Of a stretch of DNA of 64,000 nucleotides, positions 1,017-49,217 are shown piece after piece. The stretch's first letter is position 1, and every line of letters starts with the position of its first letter. Position numbers and translations under genes: made by a program. Source of the DNA: an uncultured Pseudobdellovibrionaceae bacterium (GTDB lineage Bacteria; Bdellovibrionota; Bdellovibrionia; Bdellovibrionales; JAGQZY01); assembly GCA_964400355.1 (NCBI GenBank), contig CAYNTO010000011.1:8992-72991 (forward strand), in the 5' to 3' direction. The notes below the pieces were generated by a model. The model was not told where the DNA came from. It was given only the letters and a program-made list of their open reading frames with translations, and did not search any database.

Positions 1017-2456
1017 TTAATTAGAATCTTTTTTGTCGAGCTTTTTATGAATCTGCGCCAGTGTCTCACTTGTGGTGCGCACTTTGAGTGTGGTGCCGAG
1101 TTCGTTGTAGGATTCGGTGAGAACGCGTGTTTTGGCGCGGATGTCGCCGATAATGCCTTTGGCGGTATAGGGAATAAAGATCTCTTCGTCGGTCATGTCG
1201 CTTTCGAAGTAACTTAAGATCTTTTCGCGAAGCATTTTGATGTCGTCTTTGTTTCTGGTTTCTAAAAATATCGCATCCGGAAATTCTGTTTTTAGATCCT
1301 CTATCTGAAACGAGTTCAGCTGGTCGCGCTTATTGAGAATAAGAAGCTGTGGGACGTCCGTGGCGCCCACCTCGTGGAGCACCGTGCGCGTGACTTCGAG
1401 CTGTGATCGAAACGAGGGGTCTGAGCCATCGACCACGAACAATAAGAGCGAGGCGTGTAAGGCTTCGTCGAGTGTGGATTTGAAGGACGCCACCAAATCG
1501 TGGGGAAGTTTTTTAATAAAACCTACGGTGTCGGAAATCAAAATCTTTGGACGGCTTTCCGGATAAAGGGCGCGAACAGTGGTGTCGAGAGTTGCAAACA
1601 GTTTATCGGCGACAAGGACTTCGCTACCGGTGAGTGCGCGCATCAGGGAGGATTTGCCCGCGTTGGTGTAGCCGACGAGAGCTACGGTGAGTTCTTTCTG
1701 GCGGCGGGCGCGGCGTATTTCGTGTTCATTGCCGATGGATTCCAGTTCGGTTTTGAGCTCTTTAATGCGATCGCGCACTTTGCGGCGATCGAGTTCCAGC
1801 TTGGTTTCGCTGGCGCCACGGCCACCACCGCCGGAGGCATCGTCGTTGCCGCCGGTTTCTCGGAGCCTTGGAGCCACATAATTGAGCCGTGCGATTTCTA
1901 CTTGGATGCGCGCGGCGCGGGTTTTAGCGTGCCGGCTAAAAATCTCGATGATCACGCCGGTGCGATCAAAAACAGTGACACCTGTCGCATTTTCTAAATT
2001 GCGAATCTGTGACGGGGAGAGATCCGTGTCGACAATAACAATCTGTGCACTGCCAATGTGTTCTTTAGAGACGAGAGAATCGGTTTCAGAGTCTGTGCCC
2101 TCATCTGCGGTATCATCAAAATCCTCGTCGAAGTCATCGTCATCTTCTTTTTCAGACTCGGCCTCTTGCCATTTGACTTGCGCTTTGTGGAGCTTGCGAT
2201 CAACAAGAGAACCCAGTTCCCCAGAGCCACCTGTCCACTGCGCCAACTCTTTAAGTTTGCCGGGACCAAGCACCGTCATCGCGCGATCGGAATCGCGCTT
2301 TTGAGTGACCTGCCCAACCACGTTGTAGCCCAATGTTTTCACAAGGCGAGTGAGCTCCTTGAGAGAATTTTCCACATCGTCGGCCGAAGTTTTCGGGAGT
2401 TGAATGGCAACTAAAACTGCATTTTTTACTGGGGGCTGGGACATCGAGATTACCAT
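1017..2456 (-). CDS. hflX: GTPase HflX
   Basis: 479-aa ORF with the HflX N-terminal domain, G1 'GYTNAGKSSL', G3 'DTVGF' and G4 'NKRD'. It contains an acidic insertion (EKEDDDDFDEDFDD...). The start may be M5 (2444). Confidence 0.9.
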   Translation of the reverse strand: MVISMSQPPVKNAVLVAIQLPKTSADDVENSLKELTRLVKTLGYNVVGQVTQKRDSDRAMTVLGPGKLKELAQWTGGSGELGSLVDRKLHKAQVKWQEAESEKEDDDDFDEDFDDTADEGTDSETDSLVSKEHIGSAQIVIVDTDLSPSQIRNLENATGVTVFDRTGVIIEIFSRHAKTRAARIQVEIARLNYVAPRLRETGGNDDASGGGGRGASETKLELDRRKVRDRIKELKTELESIGNEHEIRRARRQKELTVALVGYTNAGKSSLMRALTGSEVLVADKLFATLDTTVRALYPESRPKILISDTVGFIKKLPHDLVASFKSTLDEALHASLLLFVVDGSDPSFRSQLEVTRTVLHEVGATDVPQLLILNKRDQLNSFQIEDLKTEFPDAIFLETRNKDDIKMLREKILSYFESDMTDEEIFIPYTAKGIIGDIRAKTRVLTESYNELGTTLKVRTTSETLAQIHKKLDKKDSN

Positions 2457-2560: not shown

Positions 2561-3055
2561 ATGACCGTGGATAAAAGTTCCTTTGCTGTCTTCCGAGTTG
2601 TCGCGGCGTGTATCGCGCGCGACGGTAAAGTGCATTGGCGCGAGAAGCAGTGGTTTGAGTGGTTGCTTCGCAAATATGGAGTTACGCCTGAGCAGCGATT
2701 GCAGCTCAAAGCCGATCTCAAAAACCCACCGCGCCTGGAATACATTTATACGGATATCAAAGGCATCGATGATCGATTGCGCGTGCGCGAGTTGCTCAAA
2801 AAAGCCATCAACAGAGACGGCCAGATCACATTGGGCGAACAGAATTTTTACAATGAGGTCATCGCTCTCGACAAACGCTTGCAGACTGAAACATCCGGCG
2901 ATGTTCAATTGCGCGTCCAACTTTCTGATGAAATTGCCGACGTGAATGCGCATACGGAATTTTGGAAAGACATAAAAGCCTTCAGTGAACACTGGGGACG
3001 ACGGTTATCACCGCGAGAGCTGGCGATTTGGATGTATTCTTATTGGCCTTTTTAA
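2561..3055 (+). CDS. TerB-like (tellurite-resistance TerB / DjlA-N fold) domain protein
   Basis: 164 aa with two 'A..DG.....E' half-motifs ('ACIARDGKVHWREKQWF', 'AINRDGQITLGEQNFY') spaced as in TerB-family domains. Confidence 0.5.
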   Translation: MTVDKSSFAVFRVVAACIARDGKVHWREKQWFEWLLRKYGVTPEQRLQLKADLKNPPRLEYIYTDIKGIDDRLRVRELLKKAINRDGQITLGEQNFYNEVIALDKRLQTETSGDVQLRVQLSDEIADVNAHTEFWKDIKAFSEHWGRRLSPRELAIWMYSYWPF

Positions 3056-3095
3056 TCGCGCCGGATTGCGCCATTTTTTGCTTAATATGTAGTTT

Positions 3096-3836
3096 TCAAT
3101 TCGTAAACGAAGCTCTGATAGCATCAGCAAGATATTCTTTACCTACTTCGTCGATAAGTGCGCAAAATTCTTTGTGTGTCCATTCGGTTTTCTCACTTCT
3201 ATATCTGCCATTCTTGAAGCGAAACTTTCTGGGCTGTGTTTCATTTTCATGTTTGCTAAATAAAGCGACATAGTCATAGTGCGGATCAAAACGGCCAGTA
3301 AAAGCCTCTTTGTAATTTACATGTATGTAATTTAAAAATGAATGGATTGACCGCATCGGATCTTCAAACCCTGCGGTACTACTACCTGGATGATAAAAGA
3401 GTGGCATAATGTCGTGGTTTCCATAATAGAGTCCTTGTTGGCGTCTGAGTATGAATCGCCAATAAGACTTAAGAAAGATTCTTTCAAAATCCTTTCCATT
3501 CGTGCTAAGAGAAAAATCTTTGTTGTACCGTAGAATTCTCCCGCGCCAATTGTAAGTTAGGCTTACGTCGGACGGAGTAAAGGAATGATTCGACTCGTAT
3601 TCATCGAGGTTTTCATACTGATGAATATCTATCGCTAACTTATTTCTTTCGCACAGGGCTTTTATGTCCATTGGATCCCGTATACCTGTAAAAACAATAA
3701 GGCGGGTGTGTTGTACAGGGTCAGCTTCACCATTGCGCCATTGGTCGCCTGGAATTCGTCCTTCGCAGATGCCATCGGTGAGATTGTTCTGTTGAAGAAA
3801 TTTTCTCGTTATGGAAAGTAGATTCTTACGTGTCAC
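3096..3836 (-). CDS. hypothetical protein (246 aa), downstream partner of the AbiGi-like gene; no family recognised
   Basis: Long ORF in a low-GC islet. Its GTG start at 3836 overlaps the upstream stop (GTGA). I recognise no convincing catalytic motif set. Confidence 0.6.
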   Translation of the reverse strand: MTRKNLLSITRKFLQQNNLTDGICEGRIPGDQWRNGEADPVQHTRLIVFTGIRDPMDIKALCERNKLAIDIHQYENLDEYESNHSFTPSDVSLTYNWRGRILRYNKDFSLSTNGKDFERIFLKSYWRFILRRQQGLYYGNHDIMPLFYHPGSSTAGFEDPMRSIHSFLNYIHVNYKEAFTGRFDPHYDYVALFSKHENETQPRKFRFKNGRYRSEKTEWTHKEFCALIDEVGKEYLADAIRASFTN

Positions 3837-4588
3837 TTGTTGGCTCCGAACAGCTCTGTTGTGTAAACCACGCCCACACCACTAGTTAGTAATGCGCAAA
3901 GCCTTGGATGTTTTTTATGATCGACCATTCCGCGTTTTGGTAGCACTACAAATGCCACATCATCGACTGTGAACTCAAACTTTTCGAGAGTTCTCCATTC
4001 ACGCTCTTCATAAATATCCTCAAAGTGTTCAGAGTTCTGACCTCGATTCATTTCATCAGTACGATCTAAAAAAGTCGGGATCTTGACATATTTATTCAGA
4101 AGAATTTCTTTACTTCTTTTCTTAAACTTCCAGTCGATTTTGTCAAATGTTGACAAGTCATCAATTCCTTTAATGGGCTGATATTTCACGGGTCTAAGAT
4201 CAGGCACTTTATCGACCAAGGTTTTTCTATGAAACCCAAGTCCTACATCCCCATACTTATTTAGATGCGATGCCAAGTGGTTCACTGTTATATCGCAGAA
4301 GCAAACAGCTCGTGGCTCTTTAACATTAAAAATTTTAAATTTGCTGCTATCAGGGGGGCCTAGAGGGTCGGGTGGGAAAATTAACTGACGGTCGTAATGC
4401 GGATTTTTGGGGATATAGGGTTCAAGATATCCGCCTCGCATATTCGGGTATAAATAAGATTCAAGTCTATCAATAATAGGGGAGCGGGATGGATCTCCAG
4501 ATGGATGCGGACCTTTAAAGTGCCACAGGATATTCGAAATGTGTCCAATATTTTTGTAATCTAATTTTGCCGTAATGTGAGTCACCAC
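3833..4588 (-). CDS. AbiGi / DUF2971-like protein (putative abortive-infection component)
   Basis: 251 aa, GTG start, weak RBS. The motif order 'ILWHFKG' ... 'AVCFCDITVNHLASHLNKYGDVGLGFHRK..LRPVKY' ... 'YEEREWR' resembles the AbiGi (PF10899)/DUF2971 families. Low GC. Confidence 0.55.
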   Translation of the reverse strand: MVTHITAKLDYKNIGHISNILWHFKGPHPSGDPSRSPIIDRLESYLYPNMRGGYLEPYIPKNPHYDRQLIFPPDPLGPPDSSKFKIFNVKEPRAVCFCDITVNHLASHLNKYGDVGLGFHRKTLVDKVPDLRPVKYQPIKGIDDLSTFDKIDWKFKKRSKEILLNKYVKIPTFLDRTDEMNRGQNSEHFEDIYEEREWRTLEKFEFTVDDVAFVVLPKRGMVDHKKHPRLCALLTSGVGVVYTTELFGANK

Positions 4589-4793
4589 TGCTATTATATT
4601 TAGTGTCTAAGCCGTATCTAATTTTTGCAGATGACCGTTTGGATGTAAAGGCAAATTATTTAGCTTAGTCAGTGCTACTTAAATCCGGTTAATTGGATAA
4701 CCAGGTAACGAAAGACTTCACTTCCGTAGCGGAAGTGAATAGCTGGCATCGATTACCGAACAGTATATCGGATCTACTGCCGCAAAAAGGGCA

Positions 4794-4830
4794 ATAAAAA
4801 AGGCATGCTTTTCAGCATGCCTTTTATTTT
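4794..4830 (-). terminator. Rho-independent terminator downstream of csp (bidirectional shape)
   Basis: Stem aggcatgc (4801-4808) / gcatgcct (4815-4822), 6-nt loop, flanked by an A-run and a T-run. It lies 36 nt past the csp stop. Confidence 0.8.
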
Positions 4831-4865
4831 ACGATCTGCCGGTTAGGGCAAAGCGTATAAAGTAA

Positions 4866-5063
4866 TTAACGTACAACTTTAACGTTGCTGGCTTGTGGGC
4901 CTTTTTTTCCAGAAACTACTTCGAATTCAACTTTGTCGCCGTCTTTAAGTTGGGCGCCGCCTGTGTCGTTTGCGTGAACAAACACATCTTTATCACCGTT
5001 ATCTGGTGTAATGAATCCGAAACCCTTGCCTGCATTAAAAAACTTAACTGTACCTTTTTGCAT
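4866..5063 (-). CDS. cold-shock protein (CspA family, CSD)
   Basis: 65 aa. '[17 protein letters not shown]' (RNP1) and 'DVFVH' (RNP2) are present. Confidence 0.95.
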
Positions 5064-5261
5064 ATTACTTCCTACTTATTTTTAGTGAACGACACCGTGC
5101 CGTTCTTAAAATACACTATGAACTAAATTTTCAAGATGTCTACATTGGACTATGATCCAAAGCAAAAACTGCGATCATTGTCCATTTGGCATGCTAAATG
5201 AGCCCATTCAGCTCAAATATATTCGTTTTTGGTCCCTTTTTAAGTTCAATTTTTCGACGAT

Positions 5262-5552
5262 GTGGATTATGGTCTCCCCCCAATGGAAAATCCCGCGAAC
5301 CCCAAGAAACCCCGCACCAATAAATATCCTCCGGAGGGTGTGACTTTGGAGATGATGCTCAACGCCCTGGTGGAGCATTATGGATGGGACCGAATGAGTG
5401 CTCTTATTCGCATCAACTGCTTTGCCAATGAACCTTCGATCAAGTCCAGCCTCAAGTTCCTGCGCAAAACGCCATGGGCCAAAAATAAAGTGGTCGACCT
5501 CTACACCTGGCGCCACGAAACCGGCTGGGATCCACGCGACGACGACAAGTGA
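5262..5552 (+). CDS. VF530 / DUF2132 family protein
   Basis: 'GVTLEMMLNALVEHYGWDRMSALIRINCFANEPSIKSSLKFLRKTPWAKNKV' matches the DUF2132 consensus as I recall it. The start is GTG 5262 or ATG 5283. Confidence 0.6.
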   Translation: MDYGLPPMENPANPKKPRTNKYPPEGVTLEMMLNALVEHYGWDRMSALIRINCFANEPSIKSSLKFLRKTPWAKNKVVDLYTWRHETGWDPRDDDK

Positions 5553-5644: not shown

Positions 5645-6871
5645 TTGAGATTGCTCATTCTTAAGCGACTTTGCAGTGCGTGGACCTCTCGTAGCCAAAC
5701 ACAAAAAAAATATCACCTACTCTCTGTAGTATTGGTAAGTGTGCTAGTCCTGGTGTTTCAAAACTGCTCCGGTTACAAAACTGCCGATGTGGCGCGATTT
5801 GCAGGGCAAAACCTGGGAACGGACCTCGAAAGTGACGTGGCTCCGACAGAAGAAGATAAAAAAGACGACGCCACCGGAACCACCACGCCACCGGCTACAA
5901 CCACCACACCCGTGACCACTACACCCATGACCACGACGCCGACCACTCCCGTGGTAACTTGTAAACCCACGCGCCATTATCAGAAGTCCGTGAGCGGAAA
6001 TTTTAGGTTGTCTTGCCAGTCGCCCAGCAATTATCAGCCCCTGTTTCCGGCAGTTCAGCTCAATGACACGGGCGAAGTTGTGGCCAAAGTTTCCTTTACA
6101 CTGGTGCATGACAGTTCGGTTTCCTCCAACGCCCACACCGGCATGATCAGTCTTGCGGCGGGCGCTGTGGGTGGAACGTACTTTAATAACTATGGGTATG
6201 GAGCGGTTTGTCCTGCGCAGACTGGCTCTTACCAAACGTTCGCTTATGGAAAACTTTCTGCAGGGAGTTCGAGCATAGCGATCGGAGGCCGCGCTTACGG
6301 CAATGTGGAATGTGCAAACGGCGGCAATGCCAGTAACGTATATGTGACCAACGTTGTTATAGATGCATGGGTCGAGGATTCGGGCTGCACGGGCGACAAG
6401 AAAAAGATTTATGGTTGGAGCTATCAAAAAGAAAGTCTTCAGTTGGGTCACGACAGACCCGTCTATGCGCAAACTTCAGCGACAGCTGTGCTCAAGAAGT
6501 CCGTTGTGTTTAAAGAGGCCGCACCTGTGATCGCATTTGCGCAGAATTATGCCACGCGAACGCCAACTGCCAGCTCCGGTTTTGGTGCCGTAGTTTGTGG
6601 CGCTCAGACGGATACGGCCGCTTCGATTTTTAACGCCGCGGGCGCGCAAACGGTTCACACCGACGTGTTCAGTGCCTCGCAGGGACAAAGTCATGTGATG
6701 TTGTCCCATACGAACTACCTGGCGAGCGCTTCGGCGGGCACCCACGCTTTTGACCTCTATGCAGCGGTGAACCAGGCGGTGAGTGTAGGGCACACTGTTG
6801 TGGGCATTCTCAACTCTGGGGATTCCACCATCAGTGTGATCAAGGGCCCATTCGAAGGCAAATCATGGTGA
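5645..6871 (+). CDS. putative lipoprotein with Thr/Pro-rich linker; function unknown
   Basis: 408-aa ORF (TTG start, uncertain). It has a hydrophobic leader ending in 'LVFQNCSG' and the linker 'TTTPPATTTTPVTTTPMTTTPTTPVV' (approx 5870-5960). The C-terminal domain is Ala/Gly/Ser-rich. Confidence 0.55.
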   Translation: MRLLILKRLCSAWTSRSQTQKKYHLLSVVLVSVLVLVFQNCSGYKTADVARFAGQNLGTDLESDVAPTEEDKKDDATGTTTPPATTTTPVTTTPMTTTPTTPVVTCKPTRHYQKSVSGNFRLSCQSPSNYQPLFPAVQLNDTGEVVAKVSFTLVHDSSVSSNAHTGMISLAAGAVGGTYFNNYGYGAVCPAQTGSYQTFAYGKLSAGSSSIAIGGRAYGNVECANGGNASNVYVTNVVIDAWVEDSGCTGDKKKIYGWSYQKESLQLGHDRPVYAQTSATAVLKKSVVFKEAAPVIAFAQNYATRTPTASSGFGAVVCGAQTDTAASIFNAAGAQTVHTDVFSASQGQSHVMLSHTNYLASASAGTHAFDLYAAVNQAVSVGHTVVGILNSGDSTISVIKGPFEGKSW

Positions 6872-7277: not shown

Positions 7278-8453
7278 ATGGGATTACCACGCGTTTTACT
7301 TATTTTAGTTGAGCCACCCTTGCCGTTTGGAAATCCGGCCAGCCGCTGGTCGCATGTGCTGGTTCAGCAATTGGAAAAGCACGGATATGACTTCGATGTC
7401 TTGGTGGCCTGCGGTGTGGAAGAGGATTTTATCAGGGCGCAAAAAGAATTTAAATCCGCTTCAAATATATTTTTGTTTCCTTTTGAAAAATCGAAAGGTA
7501 TCGGCTCAAAGATAAATTCTATTCTCTATCCCTATCGCTATCATGCAAGCCTTGCGCTTATGAACAAGCTCCGCGAACTGGATCCGAACTCCTACGATAT
7601 CATTCATGCCGAGAACACGTGGGCGGGATGGGCCACACGGGAGTGGGCTCACAAGTCTGTTCTTTTTGTTCACTTTGTGCTTGGAATAGATCTCAACAAC
7701 GTAAAGCCACAAGGGTGGCGCCAACGCCTGCTTTTTTGGCGGTGGTTTGCAACGGAGAAAAAAATAATTGCTGCTCATCCCAATATAGTTGCCTGCTCTC
7801 CGCGCATCGTAAACCACATCGAGCAGTGGGATGCAGATCACAAAAACCTCGTGGCCATTCCGTTTGGAATTGATCTTTCACTGTATCCCTTTATTCCAAA
7901 AGAAAAACGCCAAACCGCAAAAGCGATTGTAACAATCGTTGGCAATATGAACTGGTCGCCCTCCCTCACTGCAGCTCAGCGATTGATCACGCGGCTGTGG
8001 CCTGAGATTCATAAGCAAATGCCAGAATCGCGGCTGCGCATTGTGGGTTGGGGCGCGCGGGAACGGCTTAAAGAGTTTTTACATATGGATATTGAAGTGC
8101 TTGAGAACGTGCCAGAAACGCGGCCGTATTTTGAGGAGGCGTCGGTGTTGGTGTATGCCCCCGGGCGTGGCAGTGGAATGAAGATCAAAATCATGGAGGC
8201 GCTCGCTTATGGTGTGCCAGTGGTAACGACCGACGAGGGTGTCGAGGGCTTGGTTGTGGAGGATATGAAGCATGTCGCCATCGGCAAAACGGATCAGGAG
8301 CTAATCGCTAAAACTGTAAAAATTCTTAAAGACGCCAATCTCCAGGAGGCATTGAGGGTGAATGGTCGCAAGATGCTTGAGGAGCAGTGCAACCCGCAGG
8401 TCACGTTCGGTCAGGTGGAAGCCTTTTATCAAAAGGTGCTGGCAAATAAGTAA
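7278..8453 (+). CDS. glycosyltransferase family 4 (GT-B, RfaB-like)
   Basis: 391 aa. The C-terminal 'GSGMKIKIMEALAYGVPVVTTDEGVEGL' is the EX7E-type GT4 motif region. Confidence 0.75.
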   Translation: MGLPRVLLILVEPPLPFGNPASRWSHVLVQQLEKHGYDFDVLVACGVEEDFIRAQKEFKSASNIFLFPFEKSKGIGSKINSILYPYRYHASLALMNKLRELDPNSYDIIHAENTWAGWATREWAHKSVLFVHFVLGIDLNNVKPQGWRQRLLFWRWFATEKKIIAAHPNIVACSPRIVNHIEQWDADHKNLVAIPFGIDLSLYPFIPKEKRQTAKAIVTIVGNMNWSPSLTAAQRLITRLWPEIHKQMPESRLRIVGWGARERLKEFLHMDIEVLENVPETRPYFEEASVLVYAPGRGSGMKIKIMEALAYGVPVVTTDEGVEGLVVEDMKHVAIGKTDQELIAKTVKILKDANLQEALRVNGRKMLEEQCNPQVTFGQVEAFYQKVLANK

Positions 8454-43095: not shown

Positions 43096-43328
43096 CGGAG
43101 ACCAAATTAAAGGGTTCCGAGTCTTTTTGCAACTCTTTTGCAAAAAGCTCCTGAGACATTCAAACTGATACAGCTCAGGGTTTAGACACGCTAATTTGGT
43201 TAATATAATCAGGTGTTTGCGAAAAAAGTATTAAAGTGGGAAATTTTTTCCTCATCTTATTTAAAGACACTTCCGATACATTATTTGAGAGACATCAATG
43301 TGTTTCTGAACCATTTATGGAGGTTAGA

Positions 43329-43712
43329 ATGCCCTACTCAAAACTAATTATCGTGAGTGACGATTCCGTAGTCATTCACAGAGGTCAGGAGTTCGCGCAA
43401 ACTATGGGTATCCAGTGTGAAGTACAATCACCTAGTTACTCGTTAAGCGCAGCACCGACACTTACGTCCGGCTCAAGCCCAGTGACGAATATGCCAATGA
43501 ATAATGTTGTTCAGTTTCCTGGCAATTCTTCTAATGGCGTGGCCACGATCAACGATCTCGAAGCGCAAGCTATCGAAAAAGCGATCGCCAGTTTCCGCGG
43601 TAACCTGACTGAGGCTGCAAAAGCTTTAGGTATTGGTCGCGCGACTCTGTACCGCAAAGTTAAGTTATACAATATTGATCCTTCGCAGGCTCGCAAACGC
43701 AGAGCTGCATAA
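43329..43712 (+). CDS. small Fis-family (HTH_8) DNA-binding protein
   Basis: ATG 43329 follows a GGAGG RBS. The C-terminal 'GNLTEAAKALGIGRATLYRKVKLYNI' is a Fis-type HTH. Confidence 0.7.
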   Translation: MPYSKLIIVSDDSVVIHRGQEFAQTMGIQCEVQSPSYSLSAAPTLTSGSSPVTNMPMNNVVQFPGNSSNGVATINDLEAQAIEKAIASFRGNLTEAAKALGIGRATLYRKVKLYNIDPSQARKRRAA

Positions 43713-44903: not shown

Positions 44904-45377
44904 CTATTGTTTGCACTGCTTATCGGGAATGCGATAAGTACCTTTTGAGGCCGTAAGAATTTCTGCGGATTCGAACTTTCCCGTGCGCACTAACGCAGTT
45001 TCATTGAGCCATTTTTTGGAACAGTGAAAAATAATGTCCGCAATCCCATCGTGTCCCGTCTTCTGAATCAAAGATCCGCCAGCAATTTGCAAAAGCACAT
45101 CCTGATTTTTTATTTCTTTGAGGACTTCAAGGCCGTAATCGCAGAAAAACTGAAGACGAAGTCGGCAGTAGCCTTCTCTATTGTTCTTCTCTTTATAAAA
45201 GAAGCCGAAAGAATTATTCCCGGGCATTAAATCCTTTTCTTCAGAAGTTTGTGAAAGAAAAACATTTGCGCCCAGTGGAACGATACCTTTACGGGTGGTG
45301 CGCTGCTTGAGCATGATTTCTTCTGCGGAGGTCGTGGGTGCATGGAGTAGAAGAGTGAGTATAAATATTATCGGCAT
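44904..45377 (-). CDS. hypothetical small secreted protein (157 aa), AT-richer than surroundings
   Basis: It has a signal peptide and 5 Cys. GC spot count at 45061-45120 is 21/60. Confidence 0.45.
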   Translation of the reverse strand: MPIIFILTLLLHAPTTSAEEIMLKQRTTRKGIVPLGANVFLSQTSEEKDLMPGNNSFGFFYKEKNNREGYCRLRLQFFCDYGLEVLKEIKNQDVLLQIAGGSLIQKTGHDGIADIIFHCSKKWLNETALVRTGKFESAEILTASKGTYRIPDKQCKQ

Positions 45378-48341: not shown

Positions 48342-48614
48342 TTTCCCATTGTGTCTGATGGGTGTGGGAGGTCCAGGTTTGGCGCGCTGTGGCTGCTCGG
48401 AAAGCGGCGCCTGCGGGGTTTTTCAGCAATTTACCCGACCTTTGGCAAATGTCTCACTTTGAGACAATAAAAAACGGGCAATTGAACTCAATTAACGACT
48501 AAAATAACAACAAGGTGTTAAGGATTGATACATCTTTTCACAACAGCATCTTGTTAATAGCGTCTGAGTTGGTATGTGGTTCGCAGGTGTATATGTTATC
48601 TAAGGGGGAGAACC

Positions 48615-49217
48615 ATGAAAAACGAACGTAAGGTCATTCCATTTACCAAACCATTTAAAAAGAATCTTGTGCGCACATCCATCAATGACGTGAGAGCTGC
48701 GGCCACGGGCACAATAGCTTTTATTCTGCTGATGATGGTGGGATTCAACTTTCAAATGTTTCAGGGTTCCAATGTCACAGAAGCGAATGCGACACAGTCG
48801 CAACGTGGACTTGCCAGTGTGCCCAAGGTACTCGCTCCACAGTGGAAAAAAAGCCTTTCTGAATTGGGTCAAAAAGAGATGGTGCAAAAGGCCAGTCGTC
48901 CATCGGCCATCGATTCACTCACTTACGGCTATCTTAAAGGAAATTATTCGTTCACGGTTGAAAAAGGCGCTGTAAAAAGTATCCATTTTTCGAACGCCAG
49001 TGAAGCGCAGCCACAAGTTGTGGGTGATCGCCAAAAATTTATCAACGATCATGCCTCGGCCATCGCTCCCGATCTGCAGAGCATCAGTAGTGCTCAGCGC
49101 GAAGTTTCAGAAAAAGGTGTGCGCGAGATCTACAATCTTAAAACATCCACAGCTACAAAGACAGTGGTGTTCGAGCTCGACAAAAATAATGGATTGATCG
49201 GTATAGCCGTACAGTAA
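48615..49217 (+). CDS. hypothetical membrane-anchored protein
   Basis: ATG 48615 follows a GGGGGAG RBS. It has one TM ('GTIAFILLMMVGF'). Confidence 0.5.
   Translation: MKNERKVIPFTKPFKKNLVRTSINDVRAAATGTIAFILLMMVGFNFQMFQGSNVTEANATQSQRGLASVPKVLAPQWKKSLSELGQKEMVQKASRPSAIDSLTYGYLKGNYSFTVEKGAVKSIHFSNASEAQPQVVGDRQKFINDHASAIAPDLQSISSAQREVSEKGVREIYNLKTSTATKTVVFELDKNNGLIGIAVQ

Follow-up and report, generated by a model that had tools for sequence, protein, structure and literature searches.

The abortive infection (Abi) system AbiG was described in 1996 and its mechanism is still unsolved. In lactococci it is a two-gene system (abiGi, abiGii) that shuts off phage transcription when triggered by the major tail protein of the phage, and a 2026 review counts it among the few Abi systems without similarity to any known protein. 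The Pfam family of AbiGi, PF10899, has been placed in the ADP-ribosyltransferase (ART) superfamily, where it is poorly studied and lies close to DarT and DUF2971; the ART signature reads [R/H]x[D/T] - [S/Y][T/x][S/x] - [Q/E]x[Q/E/D], and AbiGi-like families may carry CxS in place of SxS (PMC12522546). Here we describe two overlapping genes, orfA and orfB, in a 64,000-nucleotide stretch of DNA (the window; contig CAYNTO010000011.1 of assembly GCA_964400355.1, positions 8,992 to 72,991) from an uncultured Pseudobdellovibrionaceae bacterium. The pair looks like a form of the AbiG anti-phage system that has not been described before, and the best reading is that the second component of an AbiG-like module has been replaced by an unrelated protein.

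We lean towards the view that window positions 3065-4718 hold an acquired, self-contained AbiG-type two-gene module, in which an AbiGi ART enzyme is accompanied by a regulator, sensor or antidote. It is highly probable that the pair constitutes a mobile two-gene conflict or defence unit, and family and genomic context make it probable that the unit is actually anti-phage; the assignment of AbiGi as catalytic effector and of the partner as regulator or antidote is put forward tentatively. The two genes and their junction are as follows.

3833-4588, minus strand: orfA, AbiGi-family protein, putative ADP-ribosyltransferase-like enzyme (251 aa, GTG start)
3096-3836, minus strand: orfB, the partner, founding member of an unclassified family termed 'NWRGR' (246 aa, GTG start)
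3833-3836, minus strand: GTGA stop/start overlap, the orfA stop TGA (3835-3833) lying over the orfB start GTG (3836-3834)
3844-3847, minus strand: GGAG Shine-Dalgarno-like motif inside orfA, 7 nt upstream of the orfB start

Both open reading frames (ORFs) had been proposed in an initial annotation made from the letters alone; both are present with these limits, and the GTGA overlap can be read directly from the DNA. Such an overlap implies that orfA and orfB would be translationally coupled. Purine-rich motifs at the position equivalent to GGAG were also seen in three related loci (L004, L012 and L002).

The orfA protein matched PF10899 with 54.0 bits at a cut-off of 22.4 (E 2.7e-14; residues 88-209 on profile positions 24-146 of 185) and the PADLOC AbiGi model with E 8.9e-11, and its partner-linked orthologues likewise passed the PF10899 threshold, at 28-55 bits. 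Judged by these profiles, orfA is a true AbiGi-family member. The label 'AbiGi/DUF2971-like' in the initial annotation is thus supported in its first part only: PF10899 was the sole Pfam match, and neither DUF2971 (PF11185) nor DarT (PF14487; PADLOC models included) was matched at E<=10. A profile search of PDB sequences with orfA gave no match. Conserved residues were read from an alignment of 10 diverse AbiGi proteins, comprising the orfA subclade, the canonical Niallia AbiG, and proteins of Shewanella, Rhizobium, Bradyrhizobium, Streptomyces and Rhodococcus plasmids. Three motifs stood out.

4520-4522, minus strand: codon of H23 (WHF), candidate ART motif I (H in 9 of 10 AbiGi proteins, R in the tenth; often HFT)
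4295-4303, minus strand: codons of C96-F97-C98, candidate ART motif II (C96 and F97 invariant in the 10; position 98 C, S, T or A)
3998-4006, minus strand: codons of E195-R196-E197 (EREWR), candidate ART motif III, ExE (E195, E197, W198 and R199 invariant in the 10)

The strings ILWHFKG, AVCFCDITVNHL... and YEEREWR quoted for orfA in the initial annotation are all present, and the three motifs that had been picked there by eye are these candidate catalytic motifs. Mapped from sequence alone, the candidate residues follow the order of the ART signature (H23-F-K, C96-F-C98, E195-R-E197), with a Cys-based motif II. The orfA protein is most likely an NAD+-dependent enzyme of the ART fold. The ExE and CxC/S motifs are kept even in AbiGi genes that stand alone. 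Compared with canonical AbiGi, the orfA protein has a longer N-terminus and ~50 additional residues inserted between motif I and motif II.

Searches of Pfam, PADLOC, NCBIfam and PHROG returned nothing for orfB. Four proteins came from a word-indexed search of 5.8 billion clusters, and an exhaustive profile search of 1.84 billion representatives gave 41 family members, all 222-293 aa long bar one fragment of 126 aa. Conservation was counted in an alignment of 41 sequences, i.e. the window protein and 40 representatives. Among these 41, no convincing match to Pfam, PADLOC or NCBIfam was found and no member matched a macrodomain (Macro); a profile search of PDB sequences with the family was empty. 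The hallmark of the family is ENNWRGR near residue 93; in most members its position hardly varies, and where the motif was located it falls at residue 84-100.

3537-3551, minus strand: codons of N96-W97-R98-G99-R100, the partner-family hallmark (R98 and R100 in 41/41 sequences, N96 in 40/41, W97 in 37/41)

Besides the two hallmark arginines, R45, P145 and D188 are kept in all 41 sequences, D184 (like N96) in 40, E25, S124 and R127 in 39, and S153 as well as D/E142 in 38. The constellation of R45, N96, W97, R98, R100, S124, R127, D142, S153, D184 and D188 suggests a protein that might bind or process a phosphate-bearing ligand. An AlphaFold2 (AF2) model of orfB (pLDDT 77, pTM 0.75) divides the protein into an N-terminal part of ~80 residues and a C-terminal part of ~150 residues, both alpha/beta domains; Foldseek searches with this model gave nothing significant in the PDB (best E 0.23, TM 0.17) or BFVD (best E 0.018, TM 0.20). 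By all these comparisons orfB is a member of a previously unclassified family without recognisable fold. This agrees with the initial annotation, which could not place the protein in any family and had set it apart from AbiGii; hidden Markov model (HMM) searches and profile comparison confirmed the latter and gave no match to a housekeeping family.

Several specific assignments of orfB were rejected. A divergent or truncated AbiGii was discarded, as none of the 41 members matched PF16873 at E<=1, hhalign gave a probability of 0.09% (reference: a Niallia plasmid protein with 247 bits to PF16873) and BLASTP an E of 2.3. For a Shedu-like or PD-(D/E)xK nuclease, hhalign gave 0.17% when a 92-bit SduA_C protein was used for comparison; this assignment had been prompted by a Shedu gene next to AbiGi in Rhizobium and by PADLOC matches of single members, which were seen to a Type II restriction endonuclease (REase) model (7e-4) and to SduA (E 0.013; 1 of 41 members, chance level). 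A Pol-beta-type nucleotidyltransferase produced noise-level matches only (NARF 0.007, L544_NTransf 0.098; Foldseek hits 1ylq, 3c18, 6sxj and MntA at E ~1-2), and the D184-x3-D188 spacing is unlike DxD. Matches of the N-terminal domain to a HicB-like antitoxin fold were likewise noise (3k6q E 0.24; BFVD HicB-like proteins E 0.3-0.6).

The co-occurrence of the two genes, which would be expected of a two-gene system as initially proposed, was clear in related loci. In 9 of 9 loci with visible upstream DNA (the window, L003, L004-6, L007, L001, L012, L002, L016/17 and L018) the AbiGi gene abuts the partner gene in the same order, with reading frames overlapping or abutting; a further locus, L013, starts inside the partner gene and is uninformative for pairing. 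The junction is GTGA or ATGA, i.e. a 4-bp overlap, in seven loci (window, L003, L004, L007, L002, L016, L018), TAATG in L001 (true start ATG at 7983) and a 2-nt gap in L012, a distant branch with a 293-aa partner. Identities of the two proteins were 69%/50% for L003, 39/30 for L004-6, 35/30 for L007, 37/31 for L001 and 29/25 for L012. Across 15 locus pairs, AbiGi identity and partner identity rise and fall together (r=0.91, the points not being independent), and the partner diverges more than AbiGi consistently across locus pairs. Altogether, orfA and orfB are obligately linked and form one unit.

A decayed copy of the pair was found in L002 (5745-8555), from a Bdellovibrionales metagenome-assembled genome (MAG). 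Its AbiGi gene is split by a frameshift (5745-6017, 5992-6534), and its partner gene is cut after 68 codons by an insertion sequence (IS) with DDE_Tnp_1 genes, the C-terminal part resuming at 7989. Breakage of both genes is expected if neither is useful or tolerated alone. Two further observations concern possible additional components. In L012 an HNH endonuclease gene with HNH_repeat domains (4673-5353) starts 9 nt after the partner stop and may encode a third component in the divergent branch, whose partners have 291-293 aa and a C-terminal extension. In L004 (330-692), and also in L005 and L006, a conserved 120-aa ORF without Pfam match lies 76 nt upstream of AbiGi on the same strand; these are three independent metagenome contigs, and the ORF could be an extra component or regulator in this lineage.

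The longer related loci lie in defence or mobile islands, a link which the initial annotation had left to be checked. In L001 (Bdellovibrionaceae MAG) the pair is located between a recombinase gene and a CBASS operon (cyclase 295 bits, SAVED-endonuclease 487 bits), which is followed by a resolvase gene. In L013 (Pseudobdellovibrionaceae MAG) a Type IIG restriction-modification enzyme (916 bits) and a PLD-domain protein follow directly, and in L002 an RmrA-like/DUF4411 pair is found upstream, with a DNA methyltransferase and several IS elements near. Resolvase and HNH endonuclease genes flank the pair in L012, a DDE transposase lies near it in L004, and a 72%-identical AbiGi adjoins a ThsB-type TIR gene (ThsB_TIR). 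The distribution of the partner family is narrow: it was not found on 72,556 plasmids (PLSDB), in IMG/VR viral contigs or in JGI metagenomes, and among 185,579 species-representative genomes (GTDB) it occurred only in two Bdellovibrionales MAGs. All named homologues are from Bdellovibrionales MAGs; the family is very rare and has to date turned up in a single lineage only.

AbiGi itself has varied partners or none. AbiGi genes precede AbiGii in Niallia, a Shedu nuclease in Rhizobium and small ORFs in Shewanella. In the plasmid settings (L014 4824-6720; L020-L023) AbiGi is followed by the Shedu (SduA_C) nuclease gene (Rhizobium), by small unassigned ORFs (Shewanella) or by an IS (Bradyrhizobium), or apparently stands alone (Streptomyces, Rhodococcus).

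That the pair was acquired is best seen from L011, a JGI metagenome contig found by an exact-protein look-up with the Csp of the window, with which it shares an identical Csp protein. The relevant features are:

3065-4718: acquired low-GC islet of ~1.65 kb, limits approximate, consisting of the two genes and ~130 bp of upstream sequence only
4717-4739, minus strand: terminator-like hairpin TTCACTTCCGCTACGGAAGTGAA (= ACTTCCGCTACGGAAGT), upstream of orfA; in L011 it adjoins the stop of a 164-aa gene
4593-4620, minus strand: promoter-like site TAGATA-16-TATAAT just upstream of orfA (10/12 consensus match, weak evidence)

L011 and the window are 94% identical in DNA over 5548-4778 (VF530, csp and the csp terminator) and 87% identical over 3057-2763 (the 3' end of the 164-aa gene). 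Between these two blocks L011 has ~400 bp and the window 1721 bp, and the orfA/orfB pair is missing from L011. As judged from its place in L011, the hairpin is an ancestral intergenic element that marks the left edge of the insert; together, its placement and the positions of the two blocks delimit the window-specific DNA to ~3065-4718. Because a relative this close is without the pair, the pair is, on this comparison of sequences, a horizontally acquired islet and not a feature conserved in synteny.

Base composition is consistent with a foreign origin, as the initial annotation had argued from spot counts. The islet has a GC content of 0.400, compared with a mean of 0.489 (standard deviation 0.021, minimum 0.402) for all 1654-bp windows across the 64 kb, and the GC contents at third codon positions (GC3) of orfA and orfB, 0.377 and 0.372, are the two lowest among 49 ORFs of at least 150 aa (mean 0.536, standard deviation 0.053). 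The low-GC zone runs on over csp and its intergenic regions to ~5250; thus the limits of the insert are set by the comparison with L011 and not by GC alone. The islet ends carry no terminal inverted or direct repeats and no target-site duplication, only short two-copy matches at chance level. No tRNA integration site, RNA component, tandem repeat or mobility gene was found at the locus, and the whole window (1-64000) contained no tRNA genes and no Rfam family at the gathering threshold. Promoter-like sites in the region were not more numerous than in shuffled sequences.

The flanking genes had been named hflX, TerB-like and csp. Domain matches agree for HflX (GTP-bdg_N/M and MMR_HSR1) and for Csp (CSD), whereas 'TerB-like' is unsupported for the 164-aa protein, which gave no Pfam match at E<=0.1. 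The gene of this protein (2561-3055, plus strand) is convergent with orfB, the stops lying 40 bp apart, and is kept in L011. At the equivalent of window ~4718-4778, L011 (1239-1369) carries a different insert of ~340 bp with a small ORF for a hydrophobic 43-aa protein (MAVNKKYVVAIVTFFAWMMVFFQ...), and the intergenic site between csp and the 164-aa gene looks like a hotspot where small inserts of differing content settle. Further observations were made in the window. The HflX GTPase (1017-2456, minus strand) has an unusual, highly acidic insertion, EKEDDDDFDEDFDDTADEGTDSETD, at ~residues 101-125 of its N-terminal domain. A 408-aa ORF (5645-6871, plus strand) without Pfam match starts with a hydrophobic N-terminus followed by a Thr/Pro-rich linker, TTTPPATTTTPVTTTPMTTTPTTPV, and its product is probably a secreted or surface protein. 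After the pair and the HTH_8 regulator gene at 43236-43712, the next-lowest GC3 values belong to 44904-45377 (minus strand, 0.44) and 48576-49217 (plus strand, 0.46), both without Pfam match and with ordinary neighbours (HTH_8 regulator, histidine phosphatase, GNAT, OsmC, YkuD).

In the mechanism that we propose, orfB would take the place held by AbiGii in the lactococcal system, and translational coupling would lead to its synthesis in fixed proportion to orfA. The two proteins would form a complex that is quiescent in uninfected cells. A phage cue would then release the AbiGi enzyme. Its target for ADP-ribosylation might be nucleic acid or some part of the expression machinery, DNA being the target of its closest functionally characterised relatives, the DarT family. 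In keeping with reports on AbiG, phage transcription or replication would be blocked by the modification. By analogy with DarT/DarG, the role of orfB would be that of a cognate regulator, sensor or antidote. What we infer here comprises ART activity, an anti-phage role and the effector/regulator assignment. The initial annotation had cast the partner as the effector, which is an assumption, since the catalytic-type residues make AbiGi at least as good a candidate.

Several points weigh against the proposed module. Lactococcal abiGi and abiGii are each non-toxic in E. coli (PMC3985639), so that a simple toxin/antidote picture may be wrong. Pfam labels AbiGi an antitoxin and AbiG a type IV toxin-antitoxin system, a type in which the toxic protein is neutralised by the other without being bound by it. 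The conserved polar residues of the partner would suit an effector enzyme equally well. At the window locus no defence or mobility gene adjoins the pair, and the partner family is too rare for a statistical evaluation of defence-island enrichment.

Among the alternatives, the one that survives best reverses the roles: the partner would be the effector, an unrecognised enzyme or nuclease-like toxin, and AbiGi its sensor, regulator or 'antitoxin'. We regard this as a less likely but serious rival. The antitoxin name, shared by Pfam and RefSeq, would fit it, as would the different genes downstream of AbiGi (AbiGii, Shedu, small ORFs), a pattern that recalls a constant sensor with swappable effectors. 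The invariant charged constellation of the partner, typical of active sites, and the weak single-member matches to the Type II REase model and SduA point the same way. However, the invariance of the AbiGi ExE and CxC/S motifs, which extends to solo genes, argues for an enzyme rather than a passive antitoxin, while the partner family gave the hhalign probability of 0.17% with Shedu mentioned above and no nuclease or other fold match. The 'antitoxin' label goes back to an analogy with AbiE, no antitoxin or neutralisation assay of AbiGi was found in the literature searched, and the adjacency of Shedu, with its 85-bp gap, may be island co-location only.

Returning to an AbiGi enzyme with a regulatory partner, a more specific and speculative idea is that the NWRGR protein is an enzyme of novel fold, which either removes the mark set by an AbiGi-type ADP-ribosyltransferase or redirects it, so that the pair would be a DarTG-like ART/antidote module built from two uncharacterised families. 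If this were true, its characterisation would reveal the mechanism of classical AbiG.

Alternatively, the pair might be a selfish addiction cassette of the toxin-antitoxin kind, maintained through post-segregational killing and of no real value against phages. The compact bicistronic layout with translational coupling, the patchy, very rare distribution with mobile-element neighbours and the joint inactivation of both genes in L002 would all be compatible with such a cassette. We consider it improbable: the founding AbiG is experimentally anti-phage with a defined phage trigger, neither lactococcal gene is toxic alone, the module repeatedly adjoins dedicated defence systems, and no copy was found among 72,556 plasmids, the replicons on which addiction modules should be most frequent.

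Much less credible is an effector/immunity pair for inter-bacterial antagonism or predation, with the ART as delivered toxin and the partner as immunity protein. Bdellovibrionales prey on bacteria, bacterial conflict systems often include ART toxins with an immunity gene next to them, and the origin of all named homologues from Bdellovibrionales MAGs would suit this idea. Yet orfA has no recognised delivery domain or other Pfam domain beyond AbiGi (no dedicated signal-peptide prediction was made), the vicinity holds no genes of secretion systems, the neighbours being anti-phage systems and mobile-element genes, and phage defence is the sole tested role of AbiGi. Hardly tenable, finally, is a non-functional foreign remnant with ORFs intact by chance or through recent arrival: the window locus lacks a mobility gene, a promoter above background and terminal repeats, and one related copy (L002) is visibly decaying, but both window ORFs are full length with every family-invariant residue intact, and the kept junction geometry and conservation across eight intact loci spanning 25-70% identity call for purifying selection on the pair.

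The preferred reading, an AbiG-type module with an exchanged second gene, presents the AbiGi component as a portable module that keeps its ART-type catalytic residues while swapping its neighbour for an unrelated protein. The literature search found no description of AbiGi paired with the NWRGR family, and a full-text search found no paper in which AbiGi and Bdellovibrio occur together. With a partner other than AbiGii, this is in line with the initial suggestion of an undescribed AbiGi-type system. The pair is a solid, testable candidate system, but extremely rare. It documents defence-type islets in Bdellovibrionales-like bacteria and adds a protein family without recognisable fold to the candidate defence repertoire. 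AbiGii and the NWRGR partner offer a natural comparison for working out the job of each component, and the pair could thereby help to open the mechanism of AbiG; residues of mechanistic interest are H23, C96/C98 and E195/E197 in AbiGi and R98, R100, D184 and D188 in the partner.

Among known systems, AbiE (AbiEi/AbiEii, a type IV toxin-antitoxin system) shares the bicistronic Abi operon with the window pair and is the source of the 'antitoxin/toxin' labels of AbiGi/AbiGii, but there is no sequence relationship, neither orfA nor orfB matching the AbiEi/AbiEii models; in databases, AbiE and AbiG annotations are often confused (Dy 2014). In the Rhizobium plasmid AbiGi-Shedu (SduA_C) arrangement, AbiGi is likewise followed on the same strand by a defence-linked gene other than AbiGii. 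In Rhizobium, though, the genes are separated by 85 bp instead of overlapping, Shedu is a stand-alone system whose adjacency may be coincidental, and the orfB family is unrelated to SduA (hhalign 0.17%).

With AbiG itself several features agree. The orfA protein is a true AbiGi by its profile matches, the two genes are co-oriented without intergenic space, and the distribution is mobile and patchy. The order is also the same, the Niallia plasmid AbiG pair being AbiGi-first with a 2-nt gap and the window pair AbiGi-first with the GTGA overlap. The differences lie in the partner, ~245 aa in orfB-type proteins versus ~400 aa in AbiGii and unrelated by HMM and profile comparison, in the ~50-residue insertion and extended N-terminus of orfA, and in the host lineage, which is Bdellovibrionales-like here and Firmicutes for canonical AbiG. 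On sequence grounds the pair lies outside AbiG as defined by its second component, AbiGii. Membership in DarTG is not claimed either: neither protein shows a DarT (PF14487) or macrodomain signal, no Foldseek match to DarT/DarG structures was obtained, and motif II is Cys-based in orfA, whereas it is Tyr-based in DarT. In both cases, however, the gene of an ART-superfamily enzyme comes first and a tightly linked partner gene next, and the literature puts AbiGi near DarT. The window pair thus resembles DarTG only in its logic, and DarTG, an ART with its cognate antidote or regulator, may serve as the best working analogy.

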